Virus record (IMG/VR): IMGVR_UViG_3300027920_000641
DNA: 64,000 nt
DNA from: a virus
Strand: one strand, 5' to 3'
The position numbers were made by a program, and so were the translations under genes. Numbering within the stretch: position 1 is the first letter of the stretch; each line of letters starts with the position of its first letter. Of the stretch, positions 42,769 to 62,002 are shown in pieces. The notes below the pieces were generated by a model, which ran no database searches, was not told the DNA's origin, and saw only the letters and a list, made by a program, of their open reading frames with translations.

Positions 42769-42769
42769 T

Positions 42770-43006
42770 ATGAGCACAATTATACCGAGAAGAAGTTCTG
42801 GGGAAGTAACTACTTTAATTGATGACGCGGGCGGTGACACGACCTATTTTGGGCGAGCTAAACTCGGGACTGCCACCAATGTCTCAAAATGGCAAATACT
42901 GCGCATATCAGTGGACGGAACAGTAGTTATGTTCCAGTACGCAAATGGTAGTCGAAGATACAACCAAAAGTGGGATGATAGGGCAGATTTAACATATTCT
43001 AATTAG
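42770..43006 (+). CDS. hypothetical protein
   Basis: ORF track 78 aa. Confidence 0.45.
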   Translation: MSTIIPRRSSGEVTTLIDDAGGDTTYFGRAKLGTATNVSKWQILRISVDGTVVMFQYANGSRRYNQKWDDRADLTYSN

Positions 43007-43027
43007 TAATTTTTCGGAATAACCAGA

Positions 43028-44490: not shown

Positions 44491-45166
44491 GGTTTCAATC
44501 ATTATCCCAGTTTATCAAAGTCACGAAATCGTAAGAAGGCAGTTGCTTTATTTGGATCGACTAAGTCTTCCGATCGAAGTAATTATAGTTGATGACAATT
44601 CAACTCCGCCTATTGACGGGGCAACATTACGGATGAACAACGATTTAGCATGGACACAGGGACTTGCCCGTAATGCTGGAGCAGAGTATGCATCTGGGAA
44701 TTATTTGTTTATGACAGATATAGACCATATTCTTTCGAAAGAAGCCATTGAGGATGCCCTAGTTTTCACGGGAAATAAAATGATATTTAGAAGACAAATA
44801 GCCATACTCGATGAAAACGGAGAAATTAGACAAGACAGTACCACCCTGGAGGATTGGGGTTACGAGAATAAAAACCTAGGCGCCTCTGTTCATGGAAATA
44901 CGTTTGTAATTAAGAAGACGGTTTTTGATGAACTTGGTGGCTATGACGAGCATGCTTGTACTAGAGGGTATCACCCTGTTTCTAGGAGTGGCGATGATTG
45001 TTTTTTTAACTCTAAATGGAATAAGAAATATAGGGGGGAAGCTCCAGCCGTTGGAAGAGATATTTATATGTTTCCCATCGGTCGATTTCATAAAAATGGC
45101 GATCTAAATCCGAAGGGCCTATTCCATAATTTAAGTCAAAGCAAGCAAGAAAGGATGTACAAATGA
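44480..45166 (+). CDS. family-2 glycosyltransferase
   Basis: VSIIIPVYQS, EVIIVDDNS, GLARNAGAEYASGNYLFMTDIDHIL (DxD). Confidence 0.8.
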   Translation: MLNRVSIIIPVYQSHEIVRRQLLYLDRLSLPIEVIIVDDNSTPPIDGATLRMNNDLAWTQGLARNAGAEYASGNYLFMTDIDHILSKEAIEDALVFTGNKMIFRRQIAILDENGEIRQDSTTLEDWGYENKNLGASVHGNTFVIKKTVFDELGGYDEHACTRGYHPVSRSGDDCFFNSKWNKKYRGEAPAVGRDIYMFPIGRFHKNGDLNPKGLFHNLSQSKQERMYK

Positions 45167-45948
45167 ACAAAGCGATAATTGGCTATGGCTGGGTTGGAAA
45201 GGCGATGAGCGTCCTTTTCCCAGATGCTTTTATTTATGACCCATATTATTTTGACGATTCTGGTTCTGTTTTTTTGAGTGATCAAAATGTCGTTAATGAA
45301 TGTGATGTTGCTTTTATATGTGTTCCGACTCCAAGTATTGACGGAGGGAAACTGGATGTCTCTATTGTGGAAGAAATTGTTGGCTGGTGCAAATGCCCAC
45401 TGATTGTTATCCGCTCTACTGTCAACCCAGGAACCTGTGATTATCTTGCAAAAAAGTATAATAAGCGCTTAGTGATGCAACCAGAGTATTTAGGAGAAAC
45501 CATTAACCACCCGATGACCGACCAAAAAACTCGTCCATTTCTAATCATCGGTGGTGAACCCGATGACCGAAGAATGCTGATTGATCTTTACACATCAGCT
45601 TATAACGCTAACATCAACATCCGACAAGTAACTGCTTATGAAGCAGAAGTTATCAAACTCTCTGAGAACAGAGCTATAGCCTTCAAAATTGCTGAGTGTC
45701 AGGAGTTATATGATGTCTGTATGGCCTCAGGCGTTGATTACTATGTTATAAGAGAGGCGGTTTATTCTGACGACCCGCGCTTTAACCTATGGTGGACATT
45801 CATTTATCCAGAAAGAAGGGGGTTCAATTCCAAGTGTTTGCCAAAGGATGTATACGCTTGGGCAGCTTGGGCAGAATCAGTCGGTTATAAACCAGCGGTA
45901 ACAAGAGCATTGCTTGAAAGGAACAAACAATGGACCTCTCAATTTTAA
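45163..45948 (+). CDS. UDP-glucose/GDP-mannose dehydrogenase-family protein (short, WbpA-like)
   Basis: IIGYGWVGKA NAD motif, CDVAFICVPTPS, catalytic-Cys motif FNSKCLPKDV; 261 aa, so the C-terminal UDP-binding domain is absent. Confidence 0.6.
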   Translation: MNKAIIGYGWVGKAMSVLFPDAFIYDPYYFDDSGSVFLSDQNVVNECDVAFICVPTPSIDGGKLDVSIVEEIVGWCKCPLIVIRSTVNPGTCDYLAKKYNKRLVMQPEYLGETINHPMTDQKTRPFLIIGGEPDDRRMLIDLYTSAYNANINIRQVTAYEAEVIKLSENRAIAFKIAECQELYDVCMASGVDYYVIREAVYSDDPRFNLWWTFIYPERRGFNSKCLPKDVYAWAAWAESVGYKPAVTRALLERNKQWTSQF

Positions 45949-47534
45949 TTCCAGCAAGATCAGAAATGTTCTTAGCAAGAACAATACAGGATTTATTAGA
46001 ACACATCGAGGGTAATACCGAGATACTGGTCGGCCTCGATGGAGCTTGGGCTGACCCTCCTATTACCGACAACCCGAAAGTTACTATAGTCCATGTCTCA
46101 GAGGCTATTGGTCAAAGAGCCATGACTAATCAGTTGTGTCGCCTTTCTAAGGCAAAGTATGTGATGAAGGTAGATGCTCATTGTGCGTTTGATCAGGGGT
46201 TCGATGTCAAGATGATAGCGGATATGCAAGATAACTGGACAATGGTTCCAATTATGCGCAATCTTCACGCGTTTAACTGGGTTTGTTCTGAAGGGCACAC
46301 TCGTTACCAGGGACCCTCTGGTGCCTGTGAAAAATGTGGAAAAGAAACAACTAGAGATATAGTATGGATTCCTAAAACCAATCCTAGTAGTACCTCATAT
46401 TGTTTTGATCCAGAGCCGCATTTTCAATATTTCGGTGAATTCAAAAATAGACCAGAGGGAAAAGGGGATTTAACTGAAACAATGAGCCTCCAGGGTTCAT
46501 GTTTTATGATGACTAGAGATAAGTATTGGGAGTTGAATATCAGCGACGAGGAGTTTGGTTCATGGGGCAGTCAAGGAATAGAAGTAGCCTGTAAAACATG
46601 GCTGTCTGGCGGTCGCGTCGTAGTTAATCATAAAACATGGTACGCTCACCTGTTCAGAACACAAGGTGGTGATTTTTCGTTTCCTTATCCCCAGTCTGGG
46701 AAAGCTGTCAGTAATGCCAAGAAGAAAGCAAAAGATCTCTTTTTTAATAATAAATGGGATAAACAGATTCATCCCCTATCATGGTTAGTAGAAAAATTCT
46801 GGCCAGTACCAGGTTGGACTGAAAATGATCTCAAATCTCTTAAGAAAGAGCCAACCAAAGGGGTTCTTTATTACTCAGACAACGCCCTCAATATGCGCTT
46901 AGCCAGTAGAGTACGTCAACAAATTCAGAAATCAGGACTACCAGTCACCTCGGTCACTCTCAAACCGACTCCTTTTGGTAAGAATATAGTTATTAAAGAA
47001 CCAAGGGGTTACTTGACTATGTTTAAGCAAATTCTTGCTGGTCTTGAAGCAATGACTGAAAACATTGTCTATTTCTGCGAACATGATGTCCTATACCATC
47101 CAGATCATTTTAAGTTTACACCAGAAGATCAGTATAAGTTTTATTACAATGGCAACTACTGGTTTGTCAGATTGAAGGATGGCTTTGCTATTCACTATGA
47201 TGTCAGTCCTCTTTCTGGCCTTGTTGGTTATCGAGAGCAACTTATTGTCCATTTCAAAGAACGCGTTAGTATGATAGAAAAATTAGGAGACGAGTATAAA
47301 CCGCTTCATATGGGTTTTGAACCAATGACCCATAAGCGAATCAAGTGGAATAACTGGTTTGAGTATGAGATATTTATGCCAGAGAATCCGAATATAGACT
47401 TGGCGCACGAAGGCAATTCTACTTGGAAGCGGTGGAAACAAAAAGACTTTATTAAAAAACCAGCATTTTGGGAAGAAGGCACAATAGATACTATCCCAGG
47501 ATGGGAAAGCATAAAAGAAATTTTGAAACAATAA
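45930..47534 (+). CDS. family-2 glycosyltransferase (DAH-motif type) with large C-terminal extension
   Basis: LSILIPARSEMFL, ILVGLDG, MKVDAHCAF, QGSCFMMTRDKYW; 534 aa. Confidence 0.6.
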   Translation: MDLSILIPARSEMFLARTIQDLLEHIEGNTEILVGLDGAWADPPITDNPKVTIVHVSEAIGQRAMTNQLCRLSKAKYVMKVDAHCAFDQGFDVKMIADMQDNWTMVPIMRNLHAFNWVCSEGHTRYQGPSGACEKCGKETTRDIVWIPKTNPSSTSYCFDPEPHFQYFGEFKNRPEGKGDLTETMSLQGSCFMMTRDKYWELNISDEEFGSWGSQGIEVACKTWLSGGRVVVNHKTWYAHLFRTQGGDFSFPYPQSGKAVSNAKKKAKDLFFNNKWDKQIHPLSWLVEKFWPVPGWTENDLKSLKKEPTKGVLYYSDNALNMRLASRVRQQIQKSGLPVTSVTLKPTPFGKNIVIKEPRGYLTMFKQILAGLEAMTENIVYFCEHDVLYHPDHFKFTPEDQYKFYYNGNYWFVRLKDGFAIHYDVSPLSGLVGYREQLIVHFKERVSMIEKLGDEYKPLHMGFEPMTHKRIKWNNWFEYEIFMPENPNIDLAHEGNSTWKRWKQKDFIKKPAFWEEGTIDTIPGWESIKEILKQ

Positions 47535-47535
47535 C

Positions 47536-47922
47536 ATGTATAATGCAGAAATAAAAGCATCAATTTTAAGTTTTTGTATACTCTTAATTATAAGTCCATT
47601 AGCAGTACATAATCAAGTGAATGATTATCGTATAGAAAATAAGTTACAACCGTTAGTATTTAATAAGAGTTTGTGTAAAGTAGCAGAAGTACGAGCGAAT
47701 CAGATACAAACAGATTGGTCACACAAAAGTTTTTTTAAAGAAGTAAAAAAAATTAAATATGCACAAGCTGGTGAAAATTTAGCAAAAGATTTTAATAATG
47801 AAGAAGATTTAGTAAATGCATGGATAAACTCAAAAGCGCATAGACAAAATTTATTAAGACCATATACACGGCATTGTATAGCTTGTGTTAATAATCATTG
47901 TGTACAAATACTTATAAGGTAG
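47536..47922 (+). CDS. secreted CAP/SCP/PR-1-like (YkwD-type) protein
   Basis: Signal peptide, then GENLAKDFNNEEDLVNAWINSKAHRQNLLRPYTRHC matching the SCP-like GEN...W..S.gHr.N.L pattern; strongly AT-rich codon usage. Confidence 0.55.
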   Translation: MYNAEIKASILSFCILLIISPLAVHNQVNDYRIENKLQPLVFNKSLCKVAEVRANQIQTDWSHKSFFKEVKKIKYAQAGENLAKDFNNEEDLVNAWINSKAHRQNLLRPYTRHCIACVNNHCVQILIR

Positions 47923-47942
47923 CAAATTAATAAAATTATTTT

Positions 47943-48617
47943 ATGAAAAAAACAATTTTCACTTTAAATGTTAATAGTTACTCACCAGAAATAACAACAC
48001 TTACATATCCTCTTATTCATAAGTATGCTGAAAAAATAGGTGCTGATTTTTATGTTATTTCAAAACGTAAATATCCAGATATGCCTGTAACATATGAAAA
48101 ATTGCAAATTTATGATTTAGCAAGAGAAATGGGCAATGATTGGAATATTTATCTTGATTCAGATACATTAGTACATCCAGATACAGTTGATTTTACATCT
48201 TTAATTTCTAAAGATACAGTTATGCACAATGGTGCAGACATGGCAAGCATTCGCTGGAGATATGATAATGTATTTTTGCGAGATGGTAGAGATATTGGAT
48301 CATGTAACTGGATGGCAATTGCTTCTGATTGGTGTTTAGATCTTTGGAGTCCACTTGATATTCCGCTTCAAGAAGCGTTAAATAATATTTTTCCTACAGC
48401 AAATGAATTGCAAACAAATATTACTAAAGAACATTTAATCGATGACTATACTTTGTCAAGAAATATCGCGCGATATGGATTAAAATTTATTACAGCAAAG
48501 GATGTAATGAAACAAAAGGGTATTGAGGCTGCTAATTTTTTCTGGCATCAATACACATTACCAACAGATGAAAAGGTGGTGGAAATTAGAAAAATAATTA
48601 AAGCGTGGGGGATATAA
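47943..48617 (+). CDS. putative GT-A-fold glycosyltransferase-like protein
   Basis: YLDSDTLV DxD-like motif; AT-rich like the preceding gene. Confidence 0.35.
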   Translation: MKKTIFTLNVNSYSPEITTLTYPLIHKYAEKIGADFYVISKRKYPDMPVTYEKLQIYDLAREMGNDWNIYLDSDTLVHPDTVDFTSLISKDTVMHNGADMASIRWRYDNVFLRDGRDIGSCNWMAIASDWCLDLWSPLDIPLQEALNNIFPTANELQTNITKEHLIDDYTLSRNIARYGLKFITAKDVMKQKGIEAANFFWHQYTLPTDEKVVEIRKIIKAWGI

Positions 48618-48618
48618 A

Positions 48619-49533
48619 ATGGCCGCAAATTCAATCTCATTTAATAATAATAATACTTGGACAGCACCTAATAATGATATTGTAATGGTTGAGTGTTGGG
48701 GCGCAGGCGGTGGTGGAGGTTCAACAACATCTGCATCTATAGCTTCTGGTGGTGGAGGTGGTGGAGCGTATGCTAGAGCCAATGTGCAAGTGGTAGCAGG
48801 TAGAACATACAGTATACAAGCTCCTCCTGGTGGTGCTAATGGTGCTGCCAATGCCAACGGTGTAAGTGGTGTATATTCACAATTTGCATGGAATAACACA
48901 AATAACTGGACAACTTATGTCAGAGCAGCTGGTGGATTATTTGGTAGAGCTACTACTACTAGAGGTGCTGGTGGAACAGTCGCTAATAGTTTTGGTGATA
49001 TTGCTTTTGCTGGAGGAGTCGGAGCTAATGGTGTAAATGCTACAGGTATAGGAGGCGGTGGTGGTGCAGCAGCAGGAAATGCAAATGCTGGTGCGGCTGC
49101 TTCAGGTGCAACTGGTGGTACTGGTGCGAATGGTGGAGGAAATGGAGCGACTGGTGGAGCAAGTGGAGCTAATGCTACGGACAACGCTGAAGCACCAGGT
49201 GGAGGTGGAGCTGGAGCTGGAAATAATACTGGAACTGGTAGATGGGGTAGTCCTGGCAAAAATGGCACTGTAAAAATCACATTTAATGACAACGCTACAA
49301 TAAGTGGAAAAGTTACAACGGTCGGAGCAAACCAAGCTGATGCAAGAGTAATGGTTATAGCATCAACTGATAATAATGCAGCAAATAGTTTTCTAGTAGG
49401 AGTAGCCACAGCAAATGCCGAAGGAAACTGGACTATGACAGTACCATCGGCAAAAGTAATATCAGCCGTAGCCCAACACAACAATGCCACAGCACAATAT
49501 ACAAGCAAGGCTGCCCCGTTTGTAGCAAGTTAA
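48619..49533 (+). CDS. glycine-rich domain protein (minor-tail/fibre-like)
   Basis: WTAPNNDIVMVECWGAGGGGGS...GGGGGGAYARANV resembles the conserved Gly-rich domain of phage minor tail proteins; the 197-aa minus-strand ORF opposite is a shadow. Confidence 0.5.
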   Translation: MAANSISFNNNNTWTAPNNDIVMVECWGAGGGGGSTTSASIASGGGGGGAYARANVQVVAGRTYSIQAPPGGANGAANANGVSGVYSQFAWNNTNNWTTYVRAAGGLFGRATTTRGAGGTVANSFGDIAFAGGVGANGVNATGIGGGGGAAAGNANAGAAASGATGGTGANGGGNGATGGASGANATDNAEAPGGGGAGAGNNTGTGRWGSPGKNGTVKITFNDNATISGKVTTVGANQADARVMVIASTDNNAANSFLVGVATANAEGNWTMTVPSAKVISAVAQHNNATAQYTSKAAPFVAS

Positions 49534-49534
49534 T

Positions 49535-52500
49535 ATGGCATATACCGTACCAGCTACTAATGCAATGAATTTTGCGTTAGAGGTACATACTCCACCAGCT
49601 ACCAATGCAATGAATTTTGAGATTGCCGATGGGACAGCTCCAACGGTTGCTTTGAACACACCAGCGGATAGCTCAGGCATAAATGATACAACTCCAACAT
49701 TAAATTTTACTGGAACAGATGAAGAAGAAGATGATGTTGAATATCAAGTACAAATATCGCCAGCAAAAACAACGCTTGCATTAGAACTCAGAGAAAACTC
49801 AAACGATTTTCATAATAACTTTGACGGAACTGATACAAATATTTCCTATGGAATGACTACCACAAAATTATCAGCAATATTTAATGGAACATCGTCAAAA
49901 ATACTAATTACCAATACAATAGCAAGTCTGAGCGTTTTTTCTATTGGTTTGTATGTTTACACAACGGACAATGTGTCTGAGAGAAAGTATTTTGTTAGAG
50001 ATGCGACTAGTGGTACAGATTGGGCATTTTATGTGGGGCAGTATGACGGAAAATATTATTGGGGTATGCAAACAGATACTTGGCATACATACTATACATT
50101 AACTACTGTAGGACTAAATGAGTGGAAGTCAATCATATTCACTTATGATGGTACAACTGCAAAACTTTATGTAAATACAAGTTTGATTGATACACAAACG
50201 CCTGGCAGTATTGTCAGCCAAACTAGCAAACCATTCAAGCTAGGCTATTTAGATACGCAACAATTTCATTCTGGTTCTTTATTTAATTTTTTTGTATTTG
50301 ATTATGTTATATCAGAGGATGAAAGAAATGCTCTGTTTGCTTGTGGTGGGGTTGGATTAAATTATCCCTTTTTTGTTGAACCACCTGGGGCAGAAACATA
50401 TAGTTTCCCCTATGCTCTCAGTTATCAATCAACATTAGATAGTGGTTTTACATCTGGACATCCATTCGGCTCTGGTGATGCGATAGATTTTACTATACCG
50501 ATTACCGATGAGCTTGATGTTGGCACTGAGTATTTCTGGCAAGTAAGAGCTAAAGATCCGCTTGGGAGCACTATATATGGAGATTGGAGTGCAATGAGGT
50601 CATTTGAGGTATTATCTTCATCTAGTCAAAGTCCAAGTCAAAGTCCAAGCCTTAGTCCATCAAGTTCTGTTTCACCAAGTGAAGCGTCAACATGGTACAA
50701 CGCAAGCTGGTTATATAGAGTAAAAGTTACTGTTTTGGCCACAGAAGTTGATGTAGATTGCACAAATTTTCCAGTTTATTGTGACTTATCTGATTTACCT
50801 GCTGATTTTCATACTAATGTAAAAGCAAATGGCGCAGATATTAGAATAACAAAAGCAGATGGCACAACAGAAATTCCAAGAGAAGTAGTTTTCTATGATC
50901 AGGCTACTGATACTGGAGAACTTCATTTTAAAGGTGATATAGATTCTGATACAGATACTGATTTTTATGTTTATTATGGAAATTCTGGTGCCACTGAGCC
51001 AGCCATAGATTCTACTTATGGTGCAGAAAATGTCTGGTCATCAGATTATGAGGTTGTTGCGCATATGCAGCAAGATCCTAGTGGAGGTGCACCTCAGATA
51101 TTAGATAGTACTACTAATGATGTAGATGGCACAACAAATGGTTCGATGGCATCAGGTGATTTAGTTGCTGGGCAGTTGGCAGGTAATGCTTTAGATTTAG
51201 ATAGTGATGATTGGATAAATTTTGGTGATAATGGTGATTATAGAACTTATGATAAAACAGTGTCGATATGGGTAAGTACGAGTGATACAGATGCTTATAT
51301 AGTGGCAAAATCAAAGTATGGTGCAGAATCAGGTAGATGGGCAATAGGTACTCCAACAACTCCAACATCTTTTGTTAATGTAGGTGGCACAGATTCTGTG
51401 ATGTCATCAGCTTCGGCAATAAATAGCAGTTGGCACTTATTGACAATGGTTGTTGATAGAAACAGTTATCACAAAATGTATGTTGATGGTCAACAAGTTG
51501 CATCAAATACAGGAACAAATATTACTAATTATTCTGCTTCAGATTTGAATACAGCAAATATACTTCTTGTAGGTGGTTATAATGATGCCGCAGGAACAAG
51601 TATACACGCTTCTGCTTTTAAATATGTTGGAAAAGTAGATGAACTAAGAGTAAAGAAAGCAGCAGATTCAGCAGAATGGATCTCGACTGAATATAACAAT
51701 CAATCAAGCCCAAGTACTTTTTATGATGTAGGAATACAAGAAGAAAATACAGCTGCTTCTTCATCAGTATCTCCTAGTCAAAGTCCAAGCTTAAGTCCTA
51801 GTTCAAGTATAAGTCCTTCGCAAAGTCCTAGCCAAAGTCCAAGTCTTAGTCCTAGTTCAAGTGTTTCTCCATCATTTCCTCCAGATGTAAATACGTATTA
51901 TTTTGATGAAAGTGATGAAGGAGTAACAGATCCAAATAATGTTTGGACGAATGATGCAAATGCTTTTGACAGTGATGCGACTCCTTCAACGTATGCTAGT
52001 ACATCAACAGTTGGTTCTGTCTCTAGTAATTATCTAAAGGCTGAAGGAACTTCTGCTCCAAGTTCAGCTACAACAACTATTACTCAGGTTAGAGCTAGAA
52101 TGTATGGCAGGAGTGGTTGGGGTAGTTATCTTACTCTTACCGCACCGACAGGAGGATGGGATTGGGGACATGTCGCTGCATTAGAAATTAAATGTTATTC
52201 TACAAGTTCAGAAACTGGCAATGTTAGTGCTACTGTTTATACTGATGGTTTAGGAGAATCACTTGGAGAAATTTCGAGCAATAGTGCTTTGCCTGGATCT
52301 AGAGTTTATAAAATTGAAATCGAAGTTACTTCTGATCCTGTTGATGAATCGTCATCTATTAGTCCAAGTGTAAGTCCAAGTTTAAGTCCTAGCCAAAGTC
52401 CTTCACTTAGTCCATCATCTAGTGTAAGTCCTAGCCAAAGTCCTTCACTTAGTCCATCATCTAGTGTAAGTCCAAGTCAAAGTCCTAGTCAAAGTCCAAG

Positions 52501-54157
52501 CTTAAGTCCTAGCTCAAGTGTAAGCCCTAGTCAGAGTCCTAGTCAAAGTCCTAGTCTTAGTCCATCATCTAGTGTAAGTCCTAGTCAAAGTCCTAGCCAA
52601 AGTCCTAGTCTTAGTCCTAGCTCAAGTGTAAGTCCTAGTCAAAGTCCTAGTCAAAGCCCTAGTCTTAGTCCATCATCTAGTGTAAGTCCTAGTCAAAGTC
52701 CTAGTCAAAGTCCTTCACTTAGTCCTAGCTCAAGCATAAGTCCTAGTCAAAGTCCTAGTCAAAGCCCTAGCCTTAGTCCATCATCTAGTGCAAGCCCTAG
52801 TCAAAGCCCTAGTCAAAGTCCAAGCCTTAGTCCTAGCTCAAGCGTAAGTCCTAGCCAAAGTCCTAGTCAAAGCCCAAGTCTTAGTCCTAGTTCAAGTGTA
52901 AGTCCTTCACAAAGTCCTAGTCAAAGTCCAAGTCTTAGTCCTAGTTCAAGCGCAAGTCCTTCACAAAGCCCTAGTCAAAGTCCAAGTTTAAGTCCTAGTT
53001 CAAGTGTAAGTCCTTCACAAAGTCCTAGTCAAAGTCCTTCACTTAGTCCATCATCTAGTGTAAGTCCTAGTCAAAGTCCTAGTCAAAGCCCTAGTCTTAG
53101 TCCATCATCTAGTGTAAGTCCTAGTCAAAGTCCTAGCCAAAGCCCTAGCCGCAGTCCTAGTAGCTCTGTCAGTCCATCCGAAATATCGTCTGAGTCTTCA
53201 TCGATATCACCATCTAGTTCACTTTCTCCAAGTGTTTCTCCATCACTTAGTGCCAGTCAAAGTCCTTCACTTAGTCCAAGCAGTTCAGTTAGTTCATCTC
53301 TCAGTCCTAGTTCCAGCAAATCACCTAGTGAAAGTCTTTCCCTCAGTCCTTCAGCAAGTCAGAGCCCAAGTAAATCTCCAAGTCAATCCCCCTCCCTTAG
53401 TCCAAGTAGTTCTGCTAGTCCCAGTCAATCTCCGAGTGCAAGTCCTTCTATTTCTCCAAGTTCAAGTAAGTCACCTAGCCAGTCACCTTCGGTTAGTCCA
53501 AGTCTTTCTCCCTCTAGTTCAAAAAGTCCAAGTCAAAGCCCTTCAGAGTCTCCTAGTTTAAGTCCCTCAAGTAGTGAAAGCCCTTCTCAATCTCCATCAG
53601 GGTCACCATCTTTTTCACCAAGTGCCTCGATCAGTCCATCAGTCTCTCCTTCCCAATCTCCTAGTTTAAGTCCATCTACTTCTCAGTCACCAAGTCAATC
53701 ACCCTCCATCTCTCCTAGCCTATCACCAAGCAGTTCAAAAAGTCCAAGTCAAAGCCCCAGTCAAAGTCCCTCACTTAGTCCTTCCTCAAGTGCAAGTCCT
53801 AGTCAAAGTCCTTCCTCAAGTCAATCTCCAAGCATAAGCCCATCTGTATCCCCAAGTAGCAGTGTTTCTCCATCCACAAGTCCAAGTTCGTCTCAATCAC
53901 CCAGTCAGTCTCCATCTGTTTCAGAAAGTGAATCTCCATCTATCTCGCCATCTCCTAGCCTTAGTCCTAGCTCTAGTGTAAGTCCAAGTCAGAGCCCTAG
54001 TTTGTCTCCATCAAGTAGTGAATCTGCATCTGTATCTCCTTCGCCATCCCCACCTTTTTCTTCTGGCTATTCAAAACTGGCATATTTTGATAATGAAGTT
54101 GGTTATTATATTCGTATGATTGGTCATATCCCTTACTACAAAAAAGTTATTGAATAA
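49535..54157 (+). CDS. giant fibre/adhesin-like protein: LamG/ConA-like domains + DUF2341-like domain + about 15 tandem 18-aa Ser-Pro repeats
   Basis: WHLLTMVVDRNSYHKMYVDGQQVA and NEWKSIIFTYDGTTAKLYVN match the LamG pattern; WYNASWLYRVKVTV..NFPVY...DIRIT..DGTTEIP...FYVYYGN matches the DUF2341 pattern; (SPSQSPSQSPSLSPSSSV)n. Confidence 0.75.
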   Translation: MAYTVPATNAMNFALEVHTPPATNAMNFEIADGTAPTVALNTPADSSGINDTTPTLNFTGTDEEEDDVEYQVQISPAKTTLALELRENSNDFHNNFDGTDTNISYGMTTTKLSAIFNGTSSKILITNTIASLSVFSIGLYVYTTDNVSERKYFVRDATSGTDWAFYVGQYDGKYYWGMQTDTWHTYYTLTTVGLNEWKSIIFTYDGTTAKLYVNTSLIDTQTPGSIVSQTSKPFKLGYLDTQQFHSGSLFNFFVFDYVISEDERNALFACGGVGLNYPFFVEPPGAETYSFPYALSYQSTLDSGFTSGHPFGSGDAIDFTIPITDELDVGTEYFWQVRAKDPLGSTIYGDWSAMRSFEVLSSSSQSPSQSPSLSPSSSVSPSEASTWYNASWLYRVKVTVLATEVDVDCTNFPVYCDLSDLPADFHTNVKANGADIRITKADGTTEIPREVVFYDQATDTGELHFKGDIDSDTDTDFYVYYGNSGATEPAIDSTYGAENVWSSDYEVVAHMQQDPSGGAPQILDSTTNDVDGTTNGSMASGDLVAGQLAGNALDLDSDDWINFGDNGDYRTYDKTVSIWVSTSDTDAYIVAKSKYGAESGRWAIGTPTTPTSFVNVGGTDSVMSSASAINSSWHLLTMVVDRNSYHKMYVDGQQVASNTGTNITNYSASDLNTANILLVGGYNDAAGTSIHASAFKYVGKVDELRVKKAADSAEWISTEYNNQSSPSTFYDVGIQEENTAASSSVSPSQSPSLSPSSSISPSQSPSQSPSLSPSSSVSPSFPPDVNTYYFDESDEGVTDPNNVWTNDANAFDSDATPSTYASTSTVGSVSSNYLKAEGTSAPSSATTTITQVRARMYGRSGWGSYLTLTAPTGGWDWGHVAALEIKCYSTSSETGNVSATVYTDGLGESLGEISSNSALPGSRVYKIEIEVTSDPVDESSSISPSVSPSLSPSQSPSLSPSSSVSPSQSPSLSPSSSVSPSQSPSQSPSLSPSSSVSPSQSPSQSPSLSPSSSVSPSQSPSQSPSLSPSSSVSPSQSPSQSPSLSPSSSVSPSQSPSQSPSLSPSSSISPSQSPSQSPSLSPSSSASPSQSPSQSPSLSPSSSVSPSQSPSQSPSLSPSSSVSPSQSPSQSPSLSPSSSASPSQSPSQSPSLSPSSSVSPSQSPSQSPSLSPSSSVSPSQSPSQSPSLSPSSSVSPSQSPSQSPSRSPSSSVSPSEISSESSSISPSSSLSPSVSPSLSASQSPSLSPSSSVSSSLSPSSSKSPSESLSLSPSASQSPSKSPSQSPSLSPSSSASPSQSPSASPSISPSSSKSPSQSPSVSPSLSPSSSKSPSQSPSESPSLSPSSSESPSQSPSGSPSFSPSASISPSVSPSQSPSLSPSTSQSPSQSPSISPSLSPSSSKSPSQSPSQSPSLSPSSSASPSQSPSSSQSPSISPSVSPSSSVSPSTSPSSSQSPSQSPSVSESESPSISPSPSLSPSSSVSPSQSPSLSPSSSESASVSPSPSPPFSSGYSKLAYFDNEVGYYIRMIGHIPYYKKVIE
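52351..53170 (+). repeat. tandem 54-nt coding repeat (about 15 copies) encoding SPSQSPSQSPSLSPSSSV
   Basis: Near-identical units with synonymous variation; continues as degenerate Ser-Pro repeats to about 54060. Confidence 0.85.
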
Positions 54158-54240
54158 TGACTGATTATCTAGTTGACTAAATTATTTTAGTTAGATATAG
54201 TGACAAGAAAATAGTTAGATAGCAAAGCAATTGCGTTTAA

Positions 54241-54268
54241 CCACCTAATAAAAGAGGTGGTTTTTTTT
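54241..54268 (+). terminator. rho-independent terminator
   Basis: ccacct-aataaaag-aggtgg followed by T8. Confidence 0.75.
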
Positions 54269-54298
54269 ATTACTAAGCGCTTATTACAAGGAAATTCT

Positions 54299-54982
54299 AT
54301 GTCAAGACTAACAGTTGAATCCATCATGCAAGCTATTGCCGCTACTGTTAATCAGGAGTCTGCGGCTCCTAGTTCTGGATCTAGTGAGTGGAGTTTGTGG
54401 CTTCAATATATTAATCGATCTTATAGCGAGTGGGTTCAAGCAAACGACTGGGAATCGTTAAGAAAAACTTATTTTCCTAGCATTACAGGGTCGTCAATGG
54501 CTTCGGTCCCGCTTCCTCTTGATTTCAGGAAACTAGCTGCTAGTCCGATTTTGTATGGAGGTACCACTAGTGGAGAAGAAGTCCCAGAGGTTCTGCTAGA
54601 ACAAAGACGACAGTTTAATGAGACAGACAAGTTTTTTTCTACTATTGGAAATCACTCAGACGGCTTTACTCTTTTATTCCATCCAGCCACTCTTGCTTCT
54701 GGAGCCTCATTGGAAGTGCAGTACTACTCAACTCCTACGTCGCTTGCCTCTCCATTGGAAGTACCGATTACTAGTGATCCTCAGTACCTGATTGATAGGT
54801 CAATAGCATATATTCTGGAAGCTCGCTCAGATCCTAGATTTCAACTAGAGGAGAATAAGGCAAGAGATAGGCTGATGGCTATGATAGAAAATGTGAATGC
54901 GGCTAAATATAATTCTTATGCTGGAAGCGCACCTGTTTTGACTACTTTAAGAAAATCTGGTTTCCGTTTAGGAAGAAACTAG
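54299..54982 (+). CDS. hypothetical structural protein
   Basis: Track ORF 54257..54982 trimmed to the first ATG after the terminator and palindrome. Confidence 0.5.
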   Translation: MSRLTVESIMQAIAATVNQESAAPSSGSSEWSLWLQYINRSYSEWVQANDWESLRKTYFPSITGSSMASVPLPLDFRKLAASPILYGGTTSGEEVPEVLLEQRRQFNETDKFFSTIGNHSDGFTLLFHPATLASGASLEVQYYSTPTSLASPLEVPITSDPQYLIDRSIAYILEARSDPRFQLEENKARDRLMAMIENVNAAKYNSYAGSAPVLTTLRKSGFRLGRN

Positions 54983-55135
54983 GAAAGGATTACTACGCCA
55001 ATAGTTCGGTTAAAACCACCAGTCTTCAATCCACCAAAGGAGAGTATTGTCACATATGATACTTGGAGAAAAGGCTTAAATCTTCTACTCAGAGAGAATG
55101 AGATAGAAAAGTCAGAGGCAGTAAATCTTACTAAT

Positions 55136-56947
55136 TTGTTGTTAATTGGATCTGGGGTTCCAACAAAAAGATGGGGTTCCCATGATCATTTTGTTGGTTC
55201 TCCAACCCTTAGTTTGTCAACTCGATTTATTTTGCCAGTTAAGGATGTTGATGAATCTAGGCAGGTTTTATCATTTACAGACTGGGGGAACCTGGTCAAA
55301 AAATCTGGTGCCTCATACACAAAATTGACTGGAGCTTCTTGGGCGTCTGGGTCTCAGTTAGAGGGAACCCAGCTTGGTGGAAATGTTTATTTAGTTAGTC
55401 CTGGAAGAGAAATGGTTAGATATGATTTCGAAAACCTAATATCTTTTCCAACTCTTTCCACTCCAGAGACCCCACTGGCCAGTAACGTTTCTGGAGCAAC
55501 TGGGGCATATACTTGGTCTTGGAGAGTCACTGCAGTATCAAAATCTGGTGGAGAAACAATAGGATCAACTCCTATTTCTTTGGCCTCTATGCCACAAAAT
55601 CTGGCTGATACTCTTATCAGAGTTGCTTGGACAGCAGTTTCCGCAGCTTCTGGAGATCTGACTGGATACAATATTTATCGAGGAGACCCAGGAGACGAGA
55701 AGTGGATTGGAGGAGTGGGTCCAGCAATTACTGCTTTCTTTGATAGTGGGGCGGCGGCCAATGATCCTTTCAGAACAGTCCCAGTTACAAACTCCACTGG
55801 TGGTCCAAAGGCAAAATATATTATTCGCTTCCAAGATAGGCTAATTATCGCAGGGATCCCTGGAGAGCCAACTAAGATTCTTATTTCTGGTCGTTATCCA
55901 GACCAAGAACGTTTCGACTGGTATGCTGGTGGTGGATATGTCCTGATAGAACCAGATTCTGGTGAGCACATTACTGGGCTGGGTATTCACCAAGAGAAAC
56001 TAGTTGTTTTCAAAGAGAACTCCGTGTGGCAACTCAGCTTGAACCAGATCCAGTTTGGTCAATACTTGATTCTAGATCCACAATATAAGTTGTTGACCGC
56101 CTCTCAAGGCTGTTCTTCTCACAGGTCAATTGTTGCCGTAGAGAATGATTTGATGTTTTCTAACCGCAAGGGTATCTATATTTTACGATATGAGCCTCAA
56201 TTATTGACTGTTTTGAATGCTAATGAAATTTCTGCAAAAATCAAACCATTTTTTGAGGGTTTATCAGACGCAGACCTAGTTTCTTCAGCAGGTGGCTATA
56301 TAGATAAAAAATACGTTCTTTCATTTCCAAATAGCAAAAAAACAATTGTGTTCGATAGAGAAAGACTTTCTTTTACTGGACCATGGACTACTCCATTTGG
56401 TATTAGCCAGTGGGCTAAGTATGTTGATGTAGCTGGGGAAGAAAAATGGATAGCGGCAGATTCAACAGATGCTTACGTTACTGAGTTTTCGAAAATATAT
56501 CCAGATGATAAAAATACTGCCATTCGCACTATTTTCAAGTCTAAAAAAGAGGACTTCGGAGATTGGACAATTTTTAAAACCATTAATGAAGTGTTTATGA
56601 ACTTCCGTTCGCTCAGGGGATCTGTCGATATAAACATTTATCTCGAGGAGAGAAGTGGAAATACGGTAGCCGCCAAATCGTTTACGCTCACATCCGCTGG
56701 TTCCTCTGGTACCTCTGGTTTCGGAACAGATATGTTTGGTTCTACTCCCTTTGGGCTTACAGAAAATGACCCAGAGTTTAGCGATGATGAGTTTCCTCGC
56801 AAAGCTTTTATTTATAAGTCTTCTCGTATTTTCCAGATTGAAGTTCGTACTATTGGAAAAACGGATATTTACGAATTACTGGGAATAAAAGTAGTTGCTA
56901 TTCCCCAATCTAGAGGAAATTCGCCCAGTGCATGGAACGTATCTTAG
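55136..56947 (+). CDS. hypothetical tail/structural protein (603 aa)
   Basis: Long ORF in the tail module; the 5' end is uncertain (TTG at 55136, the first in-frame ATG is much later). Confidence 0.5.
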   Translation: MLLIGSGVPTKRWGSHDHFVGSPTLSLSTRFILPVKDVDESRQVLSFTDWGNLVKKSGASYTKLTGASWASGSQLEGTQLGGNVYLVSPGREMVRYDFENLISFPTLSTPETPLASNVSGATGAYTWSWRVTAVSKSGGETIGSTPISLASMPQNLADTLIRVAWTAVSAASGDLTGYNIYRGDPGDEKWIGGVGPAITAFFDSGAAANDPFRTVPVTNSTGGPKAKYIIRFQDRLIIAGIPGEPTKILISGRYPDQERFDWYAGGGYVLIEPDSGEHITGLGIHQEKLVVFKENSVWQLSLNQIQFGQYLILDPQYKLLTASQGCSSHRSIVAVENDLMFSNRKGIYILRYEPQLLTVLNANEISAKIKPFFEGLSDADLVSSAGGYIDKKYVLSFPNSKKTIVFDRERLSFTGPWTTPFGISQWAKYVDVAGEEKWIAADSTDAYVTEFSKIYPDDKNTAIRTIFKSKKEDFGDWTIFKTINEVFMNFRSLRGSVDINIYLEERSGNTVAAKSFTLTSAGSSGTSGFGTDMFGSTPFGLTENDPEFSDDEFPRKAFIYKSSRIFQIEVRTIGKTDIYELLGIKVVAIPQSRGNSPSAWNVS

Positions 56948-56964
56948 TTTAAAAGGATAAAAAT

Positions 56965-57642
56965 ATGACAGAAAAACTTTGGAAAGCAGCAACAACAAAT
57001 GCTTTCTCAACAACTCTTGATGGAAGTATCACGCTCTCTGACCAAACCATAACTCTTACGTCGGTGGTTGGGCTAGAGGCTCCAGGGATTCTAGTTATCG
57101 ATAGACAAGACGGCAACGAACTTAACACCCCTGGTTTACGCGAGTACATTTCTTTTGAGGGTATCTCTGGAAATGATCTTACAGATGTTACTAGAGGAGT
57201 AGGCAACTCAACTGCCCAATCTCACTCTTCTGGAGCCTTGGTAGAAGAAGCTTTATCAGTGACCCATTGGAACGACGCAGTAACTTACAATACGGCTTCT
57301 CGTACAAGAATAGCTCAACTAGAGGCTGACAAACTTTTATTTTCTGAAACAGATGGGGCAACTGTAACTTTTGATTTAGACGAATCTAAGATTCAGACGG
57401 TTGTACTAGGTGGGAATAGAACCTTAGTCGTAAGCAATGCAGCGATTGGAGAAGTTTTTGTCATTCGTTTAAAGCAGGGAGCTGGCGGAAGTAAGGCGGT
57501 AACTTGGTGGGACACTATCGCATGGCCAGGAGGTTCTGCCCCATCTCTTTCTACAGCTGAGGATGCAGTAGATACTTTCGGGTTTATTTGCACAGCAGAA
57601 AATATGTATGACGGTTATTTTATAGGATTTGCGTTAGCATAA
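56965..57642 (+). CDS. tail fibre-like protein, paralogue A (shared N-terminal anchor domain)
   Basis: About 105 N-terminal aa roughly 75% identical to 59095..59874 (KLWKAATTNAFSTTLDGSIT...STAQSHSSGALVEEALSVTHWND); AAAAGGATAAAAAT-ATG. Confidence 0.55.
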   Translation: MTEKLWKAATTNAFSTTLDGSITLSDQTITLTSVVGLEAPGILVIDRQDGNELNTPGLREYISFEGISGNDLTDVTRGVGNSTAQSHSSGALVEEALSVTHWNDAVTYNTASRTRIAQLEADKLLFSETDGATVTFDLDESKIQTVVLGGNRTLVVSNAAIGEVFVIRLKQGAGGSKAVTWWDTIAWPGGSAPSLSTAEDAVDTFGFICTAENMYDGYFIGFALA

Positions 57643-57653
57643 AAGGAGTCTTT

Positions 57654-57842
57654 ATGACAGAAACAGTTTTTAGAATCGTTGGATTTGAGATCAAAACTCC
57701 AGAGGGAAACTTCATGGAGAGTTGCACCTTTTGGATATATGCCAAGAAGGAAGATGAAGCTATGAAAATAGCCAAGTCTAAAGGAATCAAGAAAAAATAC
57801 TGGCAGACAATAGAAGTAATAGAGAAAAAAGAAAATGCTTAG
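57654..57842 (+). CDS. hypothetical small protein
   Basis: ORF track 62 aa; AAAGGAGTCTTT-ATG. Confidence 0.45.
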   Translation: MTETVFRIVGFEIKTPEGNFMESCTFWIYAKKEDEAMKIAKSKGIKKKYWQTIEVIEKKENA

Positions 57843-59076
57843 TCCTAACGTTATTATTCCGTTTTCTGGAAATCACGCTGATGTTCCCTCTGGTTTTGCT
57901 AGAGTTACCGATCTAGACGGCAAGTACCCAAAAGGGTATGGTGCGGAAGTAATTAATACTTCTGGTGGAGCTGCAACACATACTCATACTAGTCCTGGTC
58001 ACACTCACTCACTTGCCCCCCATACTCATACTGCTACCTTACCATCTCCTGGGACAAGTGGCGGTACTAGATCTTCTGGGGGAGATTTGCCTGTTTTGAA
58101 TCATACGCACTCGGTTACTACTGATAACCCGAGCTCAACAACATCTTCTTCGACAGCAGTAACCTATGGTTCTTGCTCGAATGATCCTCCATACTACACT
58201 GTTATTTTTATCAAATCTAATGGCTATAGTTTTATTCCTCCGAATGGCATGGTTATAAGAGAGTCTACTACTAGACCTGGGATGACATTCCACTCTGCTT
58301 CTGCTGGAAAATATCTCAAGGGAGCTGGGACTGGGGCCAATGCTGGTGGGACTGGTGGCTCTGTTACCAATGTTCACAATATTACGCATGGTCATACGAT
58401 TGGCGCCCATACACATACTTTTACCTCATCAACTTTATCTCCAACAATAACTTCTCCAGATACGTGGGAGATGGTGAGGGGTGCTCATAATCACTCTGGG
58501 ACTACTGGAAATAGCTCGTCTGATACGGTAAATAATAATACTGATGACTTAACGACTACGGAAACTGTTGAACCATCTCACAGAAAACTTAATCCATTTA
58601 TAAACGATGGAGCCAGTGGTGTTCAGGCTGATGTTGGAGACATAGCTCTCTGGCTAGATTCAGTTAGCACCATCCCCCCCAACTGGTTAATTTGCGATGG
58701 AACTAATGATACTCCTAACATGACCGATGTTTTCTTAAAAAATAACACCACTGCTACGAGTACATCTACTGGTGGTAGTAACACTCATACTCATGCTGCG
58801 CAGGGTCATACTCACACTGGAGCATCTCATACGCACTCTGTTCCATCAGTATCACATACGGCTGGCAATGGTAATTCTCCTGGAGGATCAGTCGGAGATG
58901 GTATGCTTGCTCCTTCCCCACACGCTTCGACCACAACAAGTTCTACGGCATTATCTCTGTCTTCAGCCAATACAACGGCCGATAGTTCTGGTAATCAACC
59001 AGCTTATTTAACAGTTGCGTATATTCAGATGAAATTTTCTATTATAGGAGGTGGATTTTTATTCAATCTACTTTAA
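57835..59076 (+). CDS. tail-collar-domain fibre protein (three tandem collar-like modules)
   Basis: Three occurrences of the (F/Y)LKG..GG...H.H..GHTH..HTH motif, with PNWLICDGT and PPNGMVI starts, matching the phage tail-collar pattern. Confidence 0.6.
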   Translation: MLSPNVIIPFSGNHADVPSGFARVTDLDGKYPKGYGAEVINTSGGAATHTHTSPGHTHSLAPHTHTATLPSPGTSGGTRSSGGDLPVLNHTHSVTTDNPSSTTSSSTAVTYGSCSNDPPYYTVIFIKSNGYSFIPPNGMVIRESTTRPGMTFHSASAGKYLKGAGTGANAGGTGGSVTNVHNITHGHTIGAHTHTFTSSTLSPTITSPDTWEMVRGAHNHSGTTGNSSSDTVNNNTDDLTTTETVEPSHRKLNPFINDGASGVQADVGDIALWLDSVSTIPPNWLICDGTNDTPNMTDVFLKNNTTATSTSTGGSNTHTHAAQGHTHTGASHTHSVPSVSHTAGNGNSPGGSVGDGMLAPSPHASTTTSSTALSLSSANTTADSSGNQPAYLTVAYIQMKFSIIGGGFLFNLL

Positions 59077-59094
59077 TATTTAACAAGGAGCAAT

Positions 59095-59874
59095 ATGGCA
59101 AATAAACTTTGGAAAGCAGCAACAACAAATGCTTTCTCAACAACTCTTGATGGAAGTATCACTGACTCAAGTAGTAGTATTGTTTTAACTTCTACGACTG
59201 GGCTTCAGGCCCCTGGTGTCTTGGTTATAGATAGGCAGGATGGGAATGGAGAGAATACTACTGCTATTCGAGAGTACGTTACATTTACGAGCATTAGCGA
59301 TAAGACCCTAAACTTGGTAGGAAGGGGAGCAGCTGGGTCAACTGCCCAATCTCACTCTTCTGGCGCCCTAGTTGAGGAAGCTCTATCAGTTACTCACTGG
59401 AATGACTTATTATCTTTTTTAGAAATTTCTCATAATTCGCTAGGTGGGATTGCTAGTACTTCTCTAGCTAGTCTTTCCGCACTTAGGGTACACAACCACC
59501 TAGACGCGTCAGGAGCCTCCATTTCGGGCATATTCCCGATCCACCCAGGCTGGCTAGTGGGCAGGGGTGTTTCTTTACCAACTACAACTGTTGGCAAGCC
59601 ACTGCCAGTGCCACAATCTGGAACAATCAGGTTCTTCAGCGCAGTTCTTCGTTCTCCTGCCTCTGGATCAGACTTGATTATTGATATCAACAAAAACTTT
59701 TCGACTATTTTCACAGATCAGGGAACTCGTTTAACTATTCCTGGAGGAGGAACATACGCATCTACCGCATCTATCGCAGTTACCAGTATCGTTTCTGGAG
59801 ATATTTTATCTATGGATATTGACCAAGGGGGTGGATCAGCACAAGACTTAACAGTTCTAGGGAGAATAGAGTAA
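59095..59874 (+). CDS. tail fibre-like protein, paralogue B
   Basis: N-terminal domain homologous to 56965..57642; divergent C-terminus; AAGGAGCAAT-ATG. Confidence 0.55.
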   Translation: MANKLWKAATTNAFSTTLDGSITDSSSSIVLTSTTGLQAPGVLVIDRQDGNGENTTAIREYVTFTSISDKTLNLVGRGAAGSTAQSHSSGALVEEALSVTHWNDLLSFLEISHNSLGGIASTSLASLSALRVHNHLDASGASISGIFPIHPGWLVGRGVSLPTTTVGKPLPVPQSGTIRFFSAVLRSPASGSDLIIDINKNFSTIFTDQGTRLTIPGGGTYASTASIAVTSIVSGDILSMDIDQGGGSAQDLTVLGRIE

Positions 59875-60401
59875 TGGCGAAAATCACGTTTTGTACCAGT
59901 GGGAAAAATTGTGCTGAAAAACTCCAAAAAACATACATCAAAAATTTGTTAACAGGAAAAGACTTTGGATGCGACTTCGTTCTAGTTGATCAAAGCGCAG
60001 ACGGCAATATATCCGAGTGGATTAAGGATAATTTATCTGGACACATAGATTCTGGCCTCTTATTTTACGATAGGGTTTCTATGGAATATAGCTATGGGGG
60101 TATCATGAACTTCGCTCATCGTTTGGGCAAGCAAGAACTACTTTGCAACTTACCTCCCGAAGCTGAGTTAAATAGTGATTTTATTGACTGGGTTATGACT
60201 CAATATTCCGTCAATGATAATGTTATTATAAAAAATATAGCTAACTCAAAGATGGTCCTGGTTAAAAGAAGTGACTTCACTGCGGTTAATGGTTACAACA
60301 CTGGCTTAACAAATCCAAAAGAAAGCCGCGATGATTTTATAAACAGAATTTTATCACTTGGAAGGAAAGTTTTAGAATATAAACTAATCATCAATACATA
60401 A
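59874..60401 (+). CDS. putative GT-A-like glycosyltransferase fragment
   Basis: MVLVKRSDFTAVNGYNTGL resembles the galactosyltransferase C-terminal (..vNGf.N.f.GWG) region; weak. Confidence 0.3.
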   Translation: MAKITFCTSGKNCAEKLQKTYIKNLLTGKDFGCDFVLVDQSADGNISEWIKDNLSGHIDSGLLFYDRVSMEYSYGGIMNFAHRLGKQELLCNLPPEAELNSDFIDWVMTQYSVNDNVIIKNIANSKMVLVKRSDFTAVNGYNTGLTNPKESRDDFINRILSLGRKVLEYKLIINT

Positions 60402-60403
60402 AT

Positions 60404-62002
60404 ATGTCCTACGCATATAAAGCCACAATAACAATTGACCACACAAAAGTCTCTGGTTCTGGTGATTTGACTGATTTTCCAGTCTTGATTTCTGGTACAT
60501 ATGATGGAACTGGCAGCGAGCCAGATTTAAGGGTGGGAACTAGCGGTGGCAATGTAACTTCTACGAGTGGGTACGATATTATTTTTACCTCTGACTCTGA
60601 TGGAAATACTCAACTTGACCACGAAATTGAAACCTATGTTTCAACTACTGGTGCGGTTTGTTTTTGGGTTAGATTACCGACACTTGACGGTGATGCAAGC
60701 ACAACTATCTATATGTGGTATGGCGATTCTGGTGTTACAACTTCTCAAGAAGATGTCGCTGGTGTATGGGATGCTGACTACGTTGGTGTATATCACTTAA
60801 AAGAAACCCCAGACCATACAGCGGATGAAGTAAAAGACTCTAGTGGTAATAATCATGGTACTGGAGCGGGAACCCTAACTTCAGTTACTGGCGCATTTGG
60901 TGGTAAAGCCATCAACTTTGGAGGAGCTGGTTATGTAGACTTAGGTGCTAGATCAGACCATAATTTTAGTGGCAACTTTACTGTATCGGCATGGGCATAT
61001 AACGCCAGCGGGGGAATAAGTAACTGTAACGTAGTTGCTCATGATCAAAGTACGGGCAGGCAGTGGGATATACATGTATCAGGGGATACAACTTTTTGGG
61101 CTGATGTTGCTAAGTCTGGCAGTTATAAAGTGGCAGAGGTTTCAAGTGGTTTTGCGAATGGGGCTTGGAAACATCTGGTGGGTAGATATAACGGCAGTAA
61201 TATTGAGGCATTTACTAATGGTTCAAAAACTACTGGAGAAGCCGTAACAGGCGCACCAGATAGTCACCCGACAACTCACTCATCAATCGGAACTTATTAC
61301 ACTTTTGGCTCTTATGTTTTTCCTGGATATATTGATGAAGTTAGGTTATCGAAGATTGCTCGGAGTGATGACTATCTGATTACTGAATACAATAATGGTA
61401 GCTCACCATCTACATTCTACACAATGGGAGATGAGACAGAGGCTGGCGGTCCATCATCTAGTCAAAGTCCAAGTGTAAGCCCCAGTCAGAGCCCCAGTCA
61501 AAGCCCCTCACTTAGTCCTAGCTCAAGCCAGAGTCCCAGTCAAAGCCCTTCACAGAGTCCAAGTCTTAGTCCTTCCTCAAGCATAAGTCCTAGCCAAAGT
61601 CCTAGTCAAAGCCCTAGCCGCAGTCCTAGTAGCTCTGTCAGTCCATCCGAAATATCGTCTGAGTCTTCATCGATATCACCATCTAGTTCACTTTCTCCAA
61701 GTGTTTCTCCATCACTTAGTGCCAGTCAAAGTCCTTCGCTTAGTCCAAGCTCAAGCCAGAGTCCCAGTCAGAGCCCTAGTCAATCCCCTTCACTTAGTCC
61801 TTCATCAAGTGTAAGCCCTAGCCAGAGCCCCAGTCAAAGTCCCTCACTTAGTCCTAGCCCAAGTCAAAGTCCTAGCCTTAGTCCTTCATCAAGTGTAAGC
61901 CCTAGCCAAAGCCCTAGCCAAAGCCCTAGTAGCTCAATTAGTCCGAGCGTTAGTCCATCACCATCTCCAGAAGATGATGAAAGTTACTGCTTTCTACTTT
62001 GA
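60404..62002 (+). CDS. DUF2341/LamG-domain protein with C-terminal Ser-Pro repeats
   Basis: N-terminus YKATITIDHTKVSG..DLTDFPVLIS...DIIFTSDSDGNTQLDHEIETYV...IYMWYGD matches DUF2341; NCNVVAHD...WKHLVGRYNGSNIEAFTNG matches LamG; C-terminal (SPSQSPSLSPSSS)n. Confidence 0.7.
   Translation: MSYAYKATITIDHTKVSGSGDLTDFPVLISGTYDGTGSEPDLRVGTSGGNVTSTSGYDIIFTSDSDGNTQLDHEIETYVSTTGAVCFWVRLPTLDGDASTTIYMWYGDSGVTTSQEDVAGVWDADYVGVYHLKETPDHTADEVKDSSGNNHGTGAGTLTSVTGAFGGKAINFGGAGYVDLGARSDHNFSGNFTVSAWAYNASGGISNCNVVAHDQSTGRQWDIHVSGDTTFWADVAKSGSYKVAEVSSGFANGAWKHLVGRYNGSNIEAFTNGSKTTGEAVTGAPDSHPTTHSSIGTYYTFGSYVFPGYIDEVRLSKIARSDDYLITEYNNGSSPSTFYTMGDETEAGGPSSSQSPSVSPSQSPSQSPSLSPSSSQSPSQSPSQSPSLSPSSSISPSQSPSQSPSRSPSSSVSPSEISSESSSISPSSSLSPSVSPSLSASQSPSLSPSSSQSPSQSPSQSPSLSPSSSVSPSQSPSQSPSLSPSPSQSPSLSPSSSVSPSQSPSQSPSSSISPSVSPSPSPEDDESYCFLL

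Follow-up and report, generated by a model that had tools for sequence, protein, structure and literature searches.

The viral record IMGVR_UViG_3300027920_000641 of IMG/VR, a stretch of 64,000 nucleotides (nt) that is called the window below, carries two plus-strand genes in which lectin-like modules are joined to long runs of Ser-Pro-Ser (SPS) repeats: gene 1 (49535–54157, 1540 amino acids (aa)) and gene 2 (60404–62002, 532 aa). Inside the repeats of both genes lies a nearly identical block of 144 nt, the origin of which is the subject of this analysis. Gene 1 comprises, in order, a LamG module, a short SPS linker (50618–50677), a DUF2341-LamG module, a second SPS linker (51758–51877, inside which a Logan contig ends at 51862), an unassigned domain of about 150 aa, a long SPS region, and a C-terminus of 34 residues without the repeat. 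Three sections make up the long SPS region, namely a homogenised tandem array (52365–53148) with about 14.7 copies of the 54-nt, 18-aa unit SPSQSPSQSPSLSPSSSV and an AGY share of 0.79 among its Ser codons, the shared block, and a degenerate distal stretch of about 790 nt (53282–54070) that is rich in the Ser codons TCT, TCC and TCG. Gene 2 consists of a DUF2341-LamG head (aa 1–346, 60404–61446) followed by an SPS tail (61442–61970) in which the 18-aa unit accounts for about 180 residues.

The domain assignments are firm for gene 2, with LamG (PF13385) at 68 bits and DUF2341 (PF10102) at 37.3 bits, both above threshold. In gene 1, PF13385 scores 81 bits and PF10102 scores 20.9 bits, under the cut-off of 23.4, and DUF2341 homology is supported by a BLASTP alignment to gene 2 (E = 4e-18). 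The common architecture of DUF2341, LamG and Ser-Pro repeats that an earlier, sequence-only reading of this DNA had described for the pair therefore holds. The gene 2 head and module 2 of gene 1 share 28% aa identity in that alignment, and the two genes are accordingly old paralogues. An AlphaFold (AF2) model of the gene 2 head has a pLDDT of 93, and Foldseek places it with carbohydrate-binding domain 4 of AbnA, the Hc-N domain of clostridial neurotoxins and NTNH, and the lectin domain of trans-sialidase (E ~1e-9). The model points to a concanavalin-A-like jelly-roll fold, for which a carbohydrate-binding role is plausible; a sequence search of the PDB with the head returned zero matches. Both genes had also been called fibre genes. 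That label is plausible from their position in a tail-gene cluster, although no virion-attachment domain was identified in them, and weak PHROG matches lead to a "virion structural protein" family (1e-5) and to families of unknown function.

A shared block within the SPS repeats

Both gene regions were read and then aligned base by base. The comparison reveals an exact match of 131 nt, 53138–53268 in gene 1 and 61607–61737 in gene 2, followed by one mismatch (53269 A versus 61738 G) and by 12 more identical bases through 53281 and 61750. The extended block (copy 1, 53138–53281; copy 2, 61607–61750; both on the plus strand) spans 144 nt at 99.3% identity and is flanked in gene 1 coordinates by outer mismatches at 53137 and 53282. 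Its copies are direct repeats with an offset of 8,469 nt, and both begin at codon position 1 of their respective open reading frames (ORFs), so that the codon phase is equal; copy 1 translates as QSPS-RSPSSSVSPSEISSESSSISPSSSLSPSVSPSLSASQSPS-LSPS. The sequence-only reading had noticed an identity of about 140 bp and had allowed that careful alignment might show many mismatches. Alignment found a single one across the 144 nt, and translation of both copies confirmed the shared reading frame and the quoted peptide. The interval first given for copy 1, 53141–53280, lies within the block, whereas its partner had been placed one to two bases off the true offset.

Some similarity between the two genes is expected, as both are rich in SPS repeats. 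Within that background the block stands apart: when the SPS regions of gene 1 and gene 2 are compared, the second-longest exact match is 31 nt, and even within the tandem array of gene 1 itself the longest exact repeat is 80 nt. The 18-aa (54-nt) SPS unit is found on both sides of the block in both genes, and the block occupies the same phase of that unit in each. At equal offset, the genes agree at 73% of the 158 nt upstream; downstream, identity is 35–55% and the alignment is out of register. Given a flank identity of 73%, the chance of an identical run of 131 nt is about 3e-18. The contrast is equally sharp at synonymous sites. In the upstream flank, which holds 51 nucleotide differences over 56 aligned codons, 47 of the 56 codons specify the same residue and 25 of those 47 differ synonymously, against 1 of 48 codons within the block. 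The 31-nt runner-up, the 73% flank and this synonymous contrast together set chance aside, and such a step in synonymous divergence at the block border is the classic signature of recent sequence transfer. Nor is the identity a leftover of recent duplication of the whole gene, because the heads are so divergent.

Origin and direction of the transfer

Very probably, a short tract recently passed between two paralogues of one genome, by gene conversion or by a template switch, and gave rise to the block. The homology for such an event would have been supplied by the repeats themselves, as both arrays are composed of SPSQSPSQSPSLSPSSSx units, about 73% identical at the DNA level, on either side of the block. 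Its native place would be in gene 1, where the homogenised array gives way to the distal region through 39 degenerate codons. These 39 codons, together with a few flanking repeat bases, would have been copied non-reciprocally into one unit of the gene 2 array, in a conversion tract of at least 131 and at most 144 nt that bore a heterology of 117 nt. Gene conversion by homologous recombination and replicative template switching could each have done this, and the sequence by itself does not tell them apart; the enzymology of the event, like its neutrality, is what we infer. The sequence-only reading had offered gene conversion or cassette exchange as explanations. The first is strongly supported by the codon contrast given above and also by relatives that lack the gene 2 tail, described below, whereas the second does not fit in the sense of a functional cassette, since what was exchanged is a short patch of 131–144 nt in a low-complexity linker.

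The direction of transfer is suggested by two features, the unit that the block interrupts in gene 2 and the choice of Ser codons inside the block. In gene 2, the 39 non-periodic codons split one otherwise perfect 18-aa unit (...SPSQSPSQSPS / block / LSPSSSQ...), and the repeat period is restored when they are taken out. Among the Ser codons of the block, the AGY share is 0.46 and TCT, TCC and TCG account for 9 of 24. These values agree with those of the degenerate distal region of gene 1 (AGY 0.49; 49 of 144; Fisher p = 0.8 versus the block) and depart from those of the SPS flanks in gene 2 (AGY 0.72–0.76; 4 of 69; p = 5e-4). Gene 1 would accordingly appear as the donor and gene 2 as the recipient.

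The relatives of gene 2 bear on the history of the tail into which the block was placed. The closest homologues of its head, P0001 (90% aa identity) and P0002 (86%), are encoded by complete genes on two unrelated metagenomic contigs, L005 and L006, and end 12–40 residues past the LamG domain, without an SPS tail. DNA homology of these contigs to the window, at 81–83%, is confined to 60404–61446 and ends at 61437–61446, and the genes that flank P0001 and P0002 are unrelated to those in the window; a search of IMG/VR for loci related to the head found none. The head is thus a mobile cassette in its own right, and the SPS tail a lineage-specific addition. Because the same 18-aa unit occurs in both genes, the tail was most likely derived from the gene 1 array at an earlier time, with about half of the synonymous sites now differing between tail and array.

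Two further consequences had been anticipated for a pair of repeats of this kind, namely inversion and deletion of the intervening 8 kb. Inversion products are impossible, since the copies are direct repeats. Recombination between them would, by prediction, remove 8,469 nt and leave an in-frame fusion of 1332 aa, so that a deletion is conceivable on paper. Genomes of this type would be defective, because the deleted segment holds the tail-gene cluster as well as the adaptor gene of SU10 type, and the occurrence of such genomes is hypothetical.

Both copies are seen in independent assemblies

Look-ups by exact protein sequence led to public contigs that match the window at 100% identity, and three JGI contigs, each without a difference from the window across this region, meet the block. 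In sample 3300027923, contig Ga0268730_1000053 spans window positions 188–53264 and ends 127 nt into copy 1, while contig Ga0268730_1000040 begins at window position 53142, with the last 127 nt of exact copy 1, and continues unbroken across gene 2 with its copy 2. Contig Ga0268731_1000140 of sample 3300027924 spans all of gene 1, including copy 1, and terminates exactly at 61737. Two JGI contigs carry the complete gene 1 protein; the longer of them, of 65,192 nt, is probably the one from which the window was taken. Contigs stop inside the block because an exact repeat of 131 nt is a branch point of the assembly graph, and the block is the cause of short-read assemblies fragmenting at this point. 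The 127 nt retained by each contig fits the behaviour of a de Bruijn graph with k = 127, a value that we infer, at an exact repeat of length k or more.

Elsewhere the public contigs document variation. The contig from the other sample, L007, is 100% identical to the window over 46965–61737, departs from it left of position 165, lacks window positions 9526–9705 (an indel of 180 nt), and has 22 differing sites over 11 kb; the first base of Ga0268730_1000053 corresponds to window position 188. The differences in L007 indicate strain variation, and the left end of the window is possibly joined or circularly permuted.

Alternative explanations for the block

Several points weigh against a recent transfer out of gene 1 into gene 2. 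The proposed direction draws on just 24 Ser codons, and both the event and its direction are read from the sequence, not observed directly in populations or reads. About 37 kb of a genome of about 110 kb, a size implied by two JGI contigs combined, lies beyond locus L001 and outside the sequence compared, so that a third copy could have donated to both genes. Such a third source, be it an unseen SPS gene, a co-infecting relative or the host, from which each gene received the block independently, would also be in keeping with the gene 2 head being common to unrelated contigs, which implies that inter-genome exchange occurs in this family. We nevertheless regard it as unlikely. There are just two copies in the window and the 8 kb beyond it, and the codon usage of the block fits the adjoining distal region of gene 1, as expected of native sequence. 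Searches of IMG/VR and of the JGI metagenome collection, the latter evidently without the source samples, gave no match to its exact 41-nt core, and a degenerate pattern derived from the peptide has no match in IMG/VR. A last point against the transfer is that the minus strand of the block folds marginally better than shuffled sequence (z = −2.45; 4 of 200 shuffles fold as well), which makes selection at the nucleotide level conceivable, whether for an RNA structure, for a regulatory or antisense transcript, or for a protein-binding DNA site. That the identity is kept in this way is nonetheless very unlikely, given that the coding strand folds no better than its shuffles (z = −0.67), that the window contains no Rfam family, that the block has no promoter- or terminator-like site of its own (minus-strand TTGACT matches recur in each SPS unit), and that the tail is missing altogether from the nearest relatives of gene 2.

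The contig ends just described, two within copy 1 and a third at the last base of exact copy 2, could also be taken to mean that the block belongs to one gene and was mis-threaded into the other by the assembler, or that the window is chimeric. Branching at the block, though, needs both contexts in the reads. In one contig the block is bounded on both sides by gene 2 context; in that of the other sample, gene 1 context bounds it on both sides and the upstream junction in gene 2 is present too; and the complete gene 1 protein is recorded twice. With both contexts contiguous in independent contigs, an assembly artefact was rejected as highly improbable. Least credible of all is that the pair belongs to a diversity-generating retroelement, as its template and variable repeats. 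A pair of in-frame copies, each about 140 nt long, in a putative receptor-binding gene that contains a lectin domain does have that general appearance, and at the sole mismatch one copy has an A. On the other side, one mismatch in 144 nt is not the excess of adenine-specific changes that such elements produce, the block lies in a low-complexity linker and not in the variable region of a C-type lectin, and no reverse transcriptase was present among the larger ORFs scanned; this explanation was likewise rejected. Short-tract conversion or template switching between the two paralogues is the account that we prefer.

A second, possibly homogenised patch and the HNH endonucleases

A smaller patch of the same kind is seen in two paralogous tail genes that lie between gene 1 and gene 2. 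An exact match of 59 nt, 56974–57032 and 59104–59162 on the plus strand, is placed at the 5′ ends of ORFs 56965–57642 and 59095–59874, with its copies 2,130 nt apart. The two ORFs have a common N-terminal domain with 62% aa identity over 124 residues. Their first 23 codons, which contain the 59-nt match, are identical at 20 of 23 positions, whereas codons 24–124 include just 22 identical ones and 34 with synonymous differences. Homogenisation within the genome thus seems to recur in this tail-gene cluster; for the 59-nt patch, an alternative to conversion is selection on the region where translation starts. Breaks that initiate recombination might, speculatively, be supplied by HNH endonucleases. 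At least five free-standing HNH ORFs are dispersed among the structural and glycosylation genes (14015–15016 on the minus strand, 27949–28464, 28695–29201, 36360–37025 and 41175–41909), a load that is unusually high for homing-endonuclease-like genes.

Gene 1 among related phage proteins

The homologues of gene 1 in uncultured phages (P0122–P0143) are proteins of 700–1600 aa. They have from one to three DUF2341-LamG head modules, which are 41–67% identical in aa sequence to module 2 of gene 1 and are set apart by repeat linkers, and behind these come long C-terminal arrays of lineage-specific short repeats. The heads, linkers and C-terminal arrays are of the same design as those of gene 1. The repeats are of other types, such as SERGLYIxG, TKDLDYxV and SSATLDxxNxTQKHTL, and the SPS array appears confined to the lineage of the present phage. 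This comparison suggests that the SPS array is the form that a highly variable repeat shaft has taken in this lineage. A literature search found no description of phage DUF2341-LamG fibres, and megablast of 49535–62002 against GenBank phages gave no match.

Exchange of this sort has a well-known counterpart in the tail-fibre and adhesin genes gp37 and gp38 of T-even phages, where conserved motifs, for example glycine-rich ones, flank hypervariable segments that are swapped (PMC3157838). The likeness lies in repeated conserved coding motifs that flank the exchanged segments, and in mosaic genes with sharp borders. Here, in contrast, the exchange is within one genome, from paralogue to paralogue, and in an SPS stalk. 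A change of receptor specificity is not expected, since the exchange falls outside the specificity domain. The phenomenon is a further instance of the known mosaicism and conversion in host-recognition genes of phages. As such, the patch offers a clean and datable case of intragenomic conversion in a phage tail-gene cluster, with 0.7% divergence set against flanks in which about half of the same-residue codons differ, and it indicates that low-complexity linker arrays can serve as portable homology by which sequence is shuffled between receptor-binding genes.

A glycosylation island adjoining the SPS proteins

The context of the two genes may be of greater value, in that lectin-headed proteins with up to about 600 SPS-repeat residues are found beside an unusually large glycosylation island. 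The island occupies about 17 kb (31416–48617, plus strand) between the SU10-like capsid gene and gene 1 and is interspersed with HNH genes. It encodes at least seven glycosyltransferases, comprising an 824-aa TPR-GT1/GT4 fusion, four of family GT2, one GT1-like enzyme and a weak match to GT21, along with sugar-modifying functions that include a DegT aminotransferase, a GFO/IDH/MocA oxidoreductase, a UDP-glucose/GDP-mannose dehydrogenase and methyltransferases. A sequence search of the PDB with the TPR-glycosyltransferase yielded zero matches. The SPS segments presumably are disordered, low-complexity stalks or linkers that bear the concanavalin-A-like lectin heads. Because the island immediately precedes the genes for proteins whose Ser-Pro-Ser residues number in the hundreds, we propose that the stalks are O-glycosylated; this genomic adjacency suggests that the SPS arrays are modified by the phage's own island and form mucin-like stalks. 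A doubtful, though possible, extension is that these proteins act as phage "mucins", with lectin heads on SPS stalks, on which the island enzymes place a dense cover of O-glycans. On this idea the TPR-glycosyltransferase fusion could recognise the substrate, conversion would keep the stalks co-adapted, and the acidic SEISSESSSIS segment of the block might be a priming or hinge motif and not a neutral passenger.

Known systems resemble this arrangement in part. The virions of F1-cluster mycobacteriophages such as Che8, and also of Rita, are reported to be glycosylated (Freeman et al. 2023, as cited in PMC11256854), and there, too, phage-encoded glycosyltransferases are tied to glycan modification of virion proteins. 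According to the account in PMC11256854, about two glycosyltransferases act in those phages, on capsid and tail-tube proteins; the present phage is predicted to encode at least seven glycosyltransferases along with nucleotide-sugar enzymes, beside proteins of which Ser-Pro repeats make up as much as 40%. Long Ser-rich arrays fused to a folded binding domain are likewise characteristic of the serine-rich repeat adhesins of Gram-positive bacteria (PMC6973325) and of mucins (PMC8249670), the arrays of which form O-glycosylated stalks and are prone to recombination and homogenisation. Unlike the adhesins, gene 1 and gene 2 are phage-encoded and come without an aSec system. Their proteins start directly at the folded head, with no signal peptide at the N-terminus and no LPXTG anchor at the C-terminus, and the repeat is SPSQSPSQSPSLSPSSSx where adhesins have dipeptide repeats of the SASx type. 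By this analogy, the resemblance would be functional only. The phage is a candidate for extensive glycosylation of virion proteins outside the mycobacteriophages, and the possible biology of glycosylated stalks is a more promising lead than the patch itself.

Genomic context

The major capsid protein, the portal and the adaptor are very distant relatives of their SU10 counterparts, and the capsid protein is at most 31% identical to that of any GenBank phage. The SU10-type adaptor gene is located at 54257–54982 and is adjoined by tail-protein PHROGs. Between gene 1 and the adaptor there is a strong terminator-like hairpin (54239–54262) with a T-run, as well as a promoter-like site (54173–54201; 10 of 12 matches), and the two suggest a putative transcription-unit boundary after gene 1. 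Directly upstream of gene 1, an ORF at 48619–49533 has a Gly_rich_2 domain and resembles a tail fibre assembly protein, and further upstream, 47536–47922 encodes a domain of the CAP/SCP (cysteine-rich secretory protein) family. Farther from the two genes, 17043–18260 encodes a homologue of the RNA ligase RtcB (Pfam E = 1e-70) in a window that is without a tRNA gene. Near the left end, the minus-strand ORF 626–1150 encodes a pentapeptide-repeat protein of 174 aa with units such as ADLGS and ANLRG, and within it a 15-nt unit is repeated in tandem (681–1025) in about 16 copies or more.

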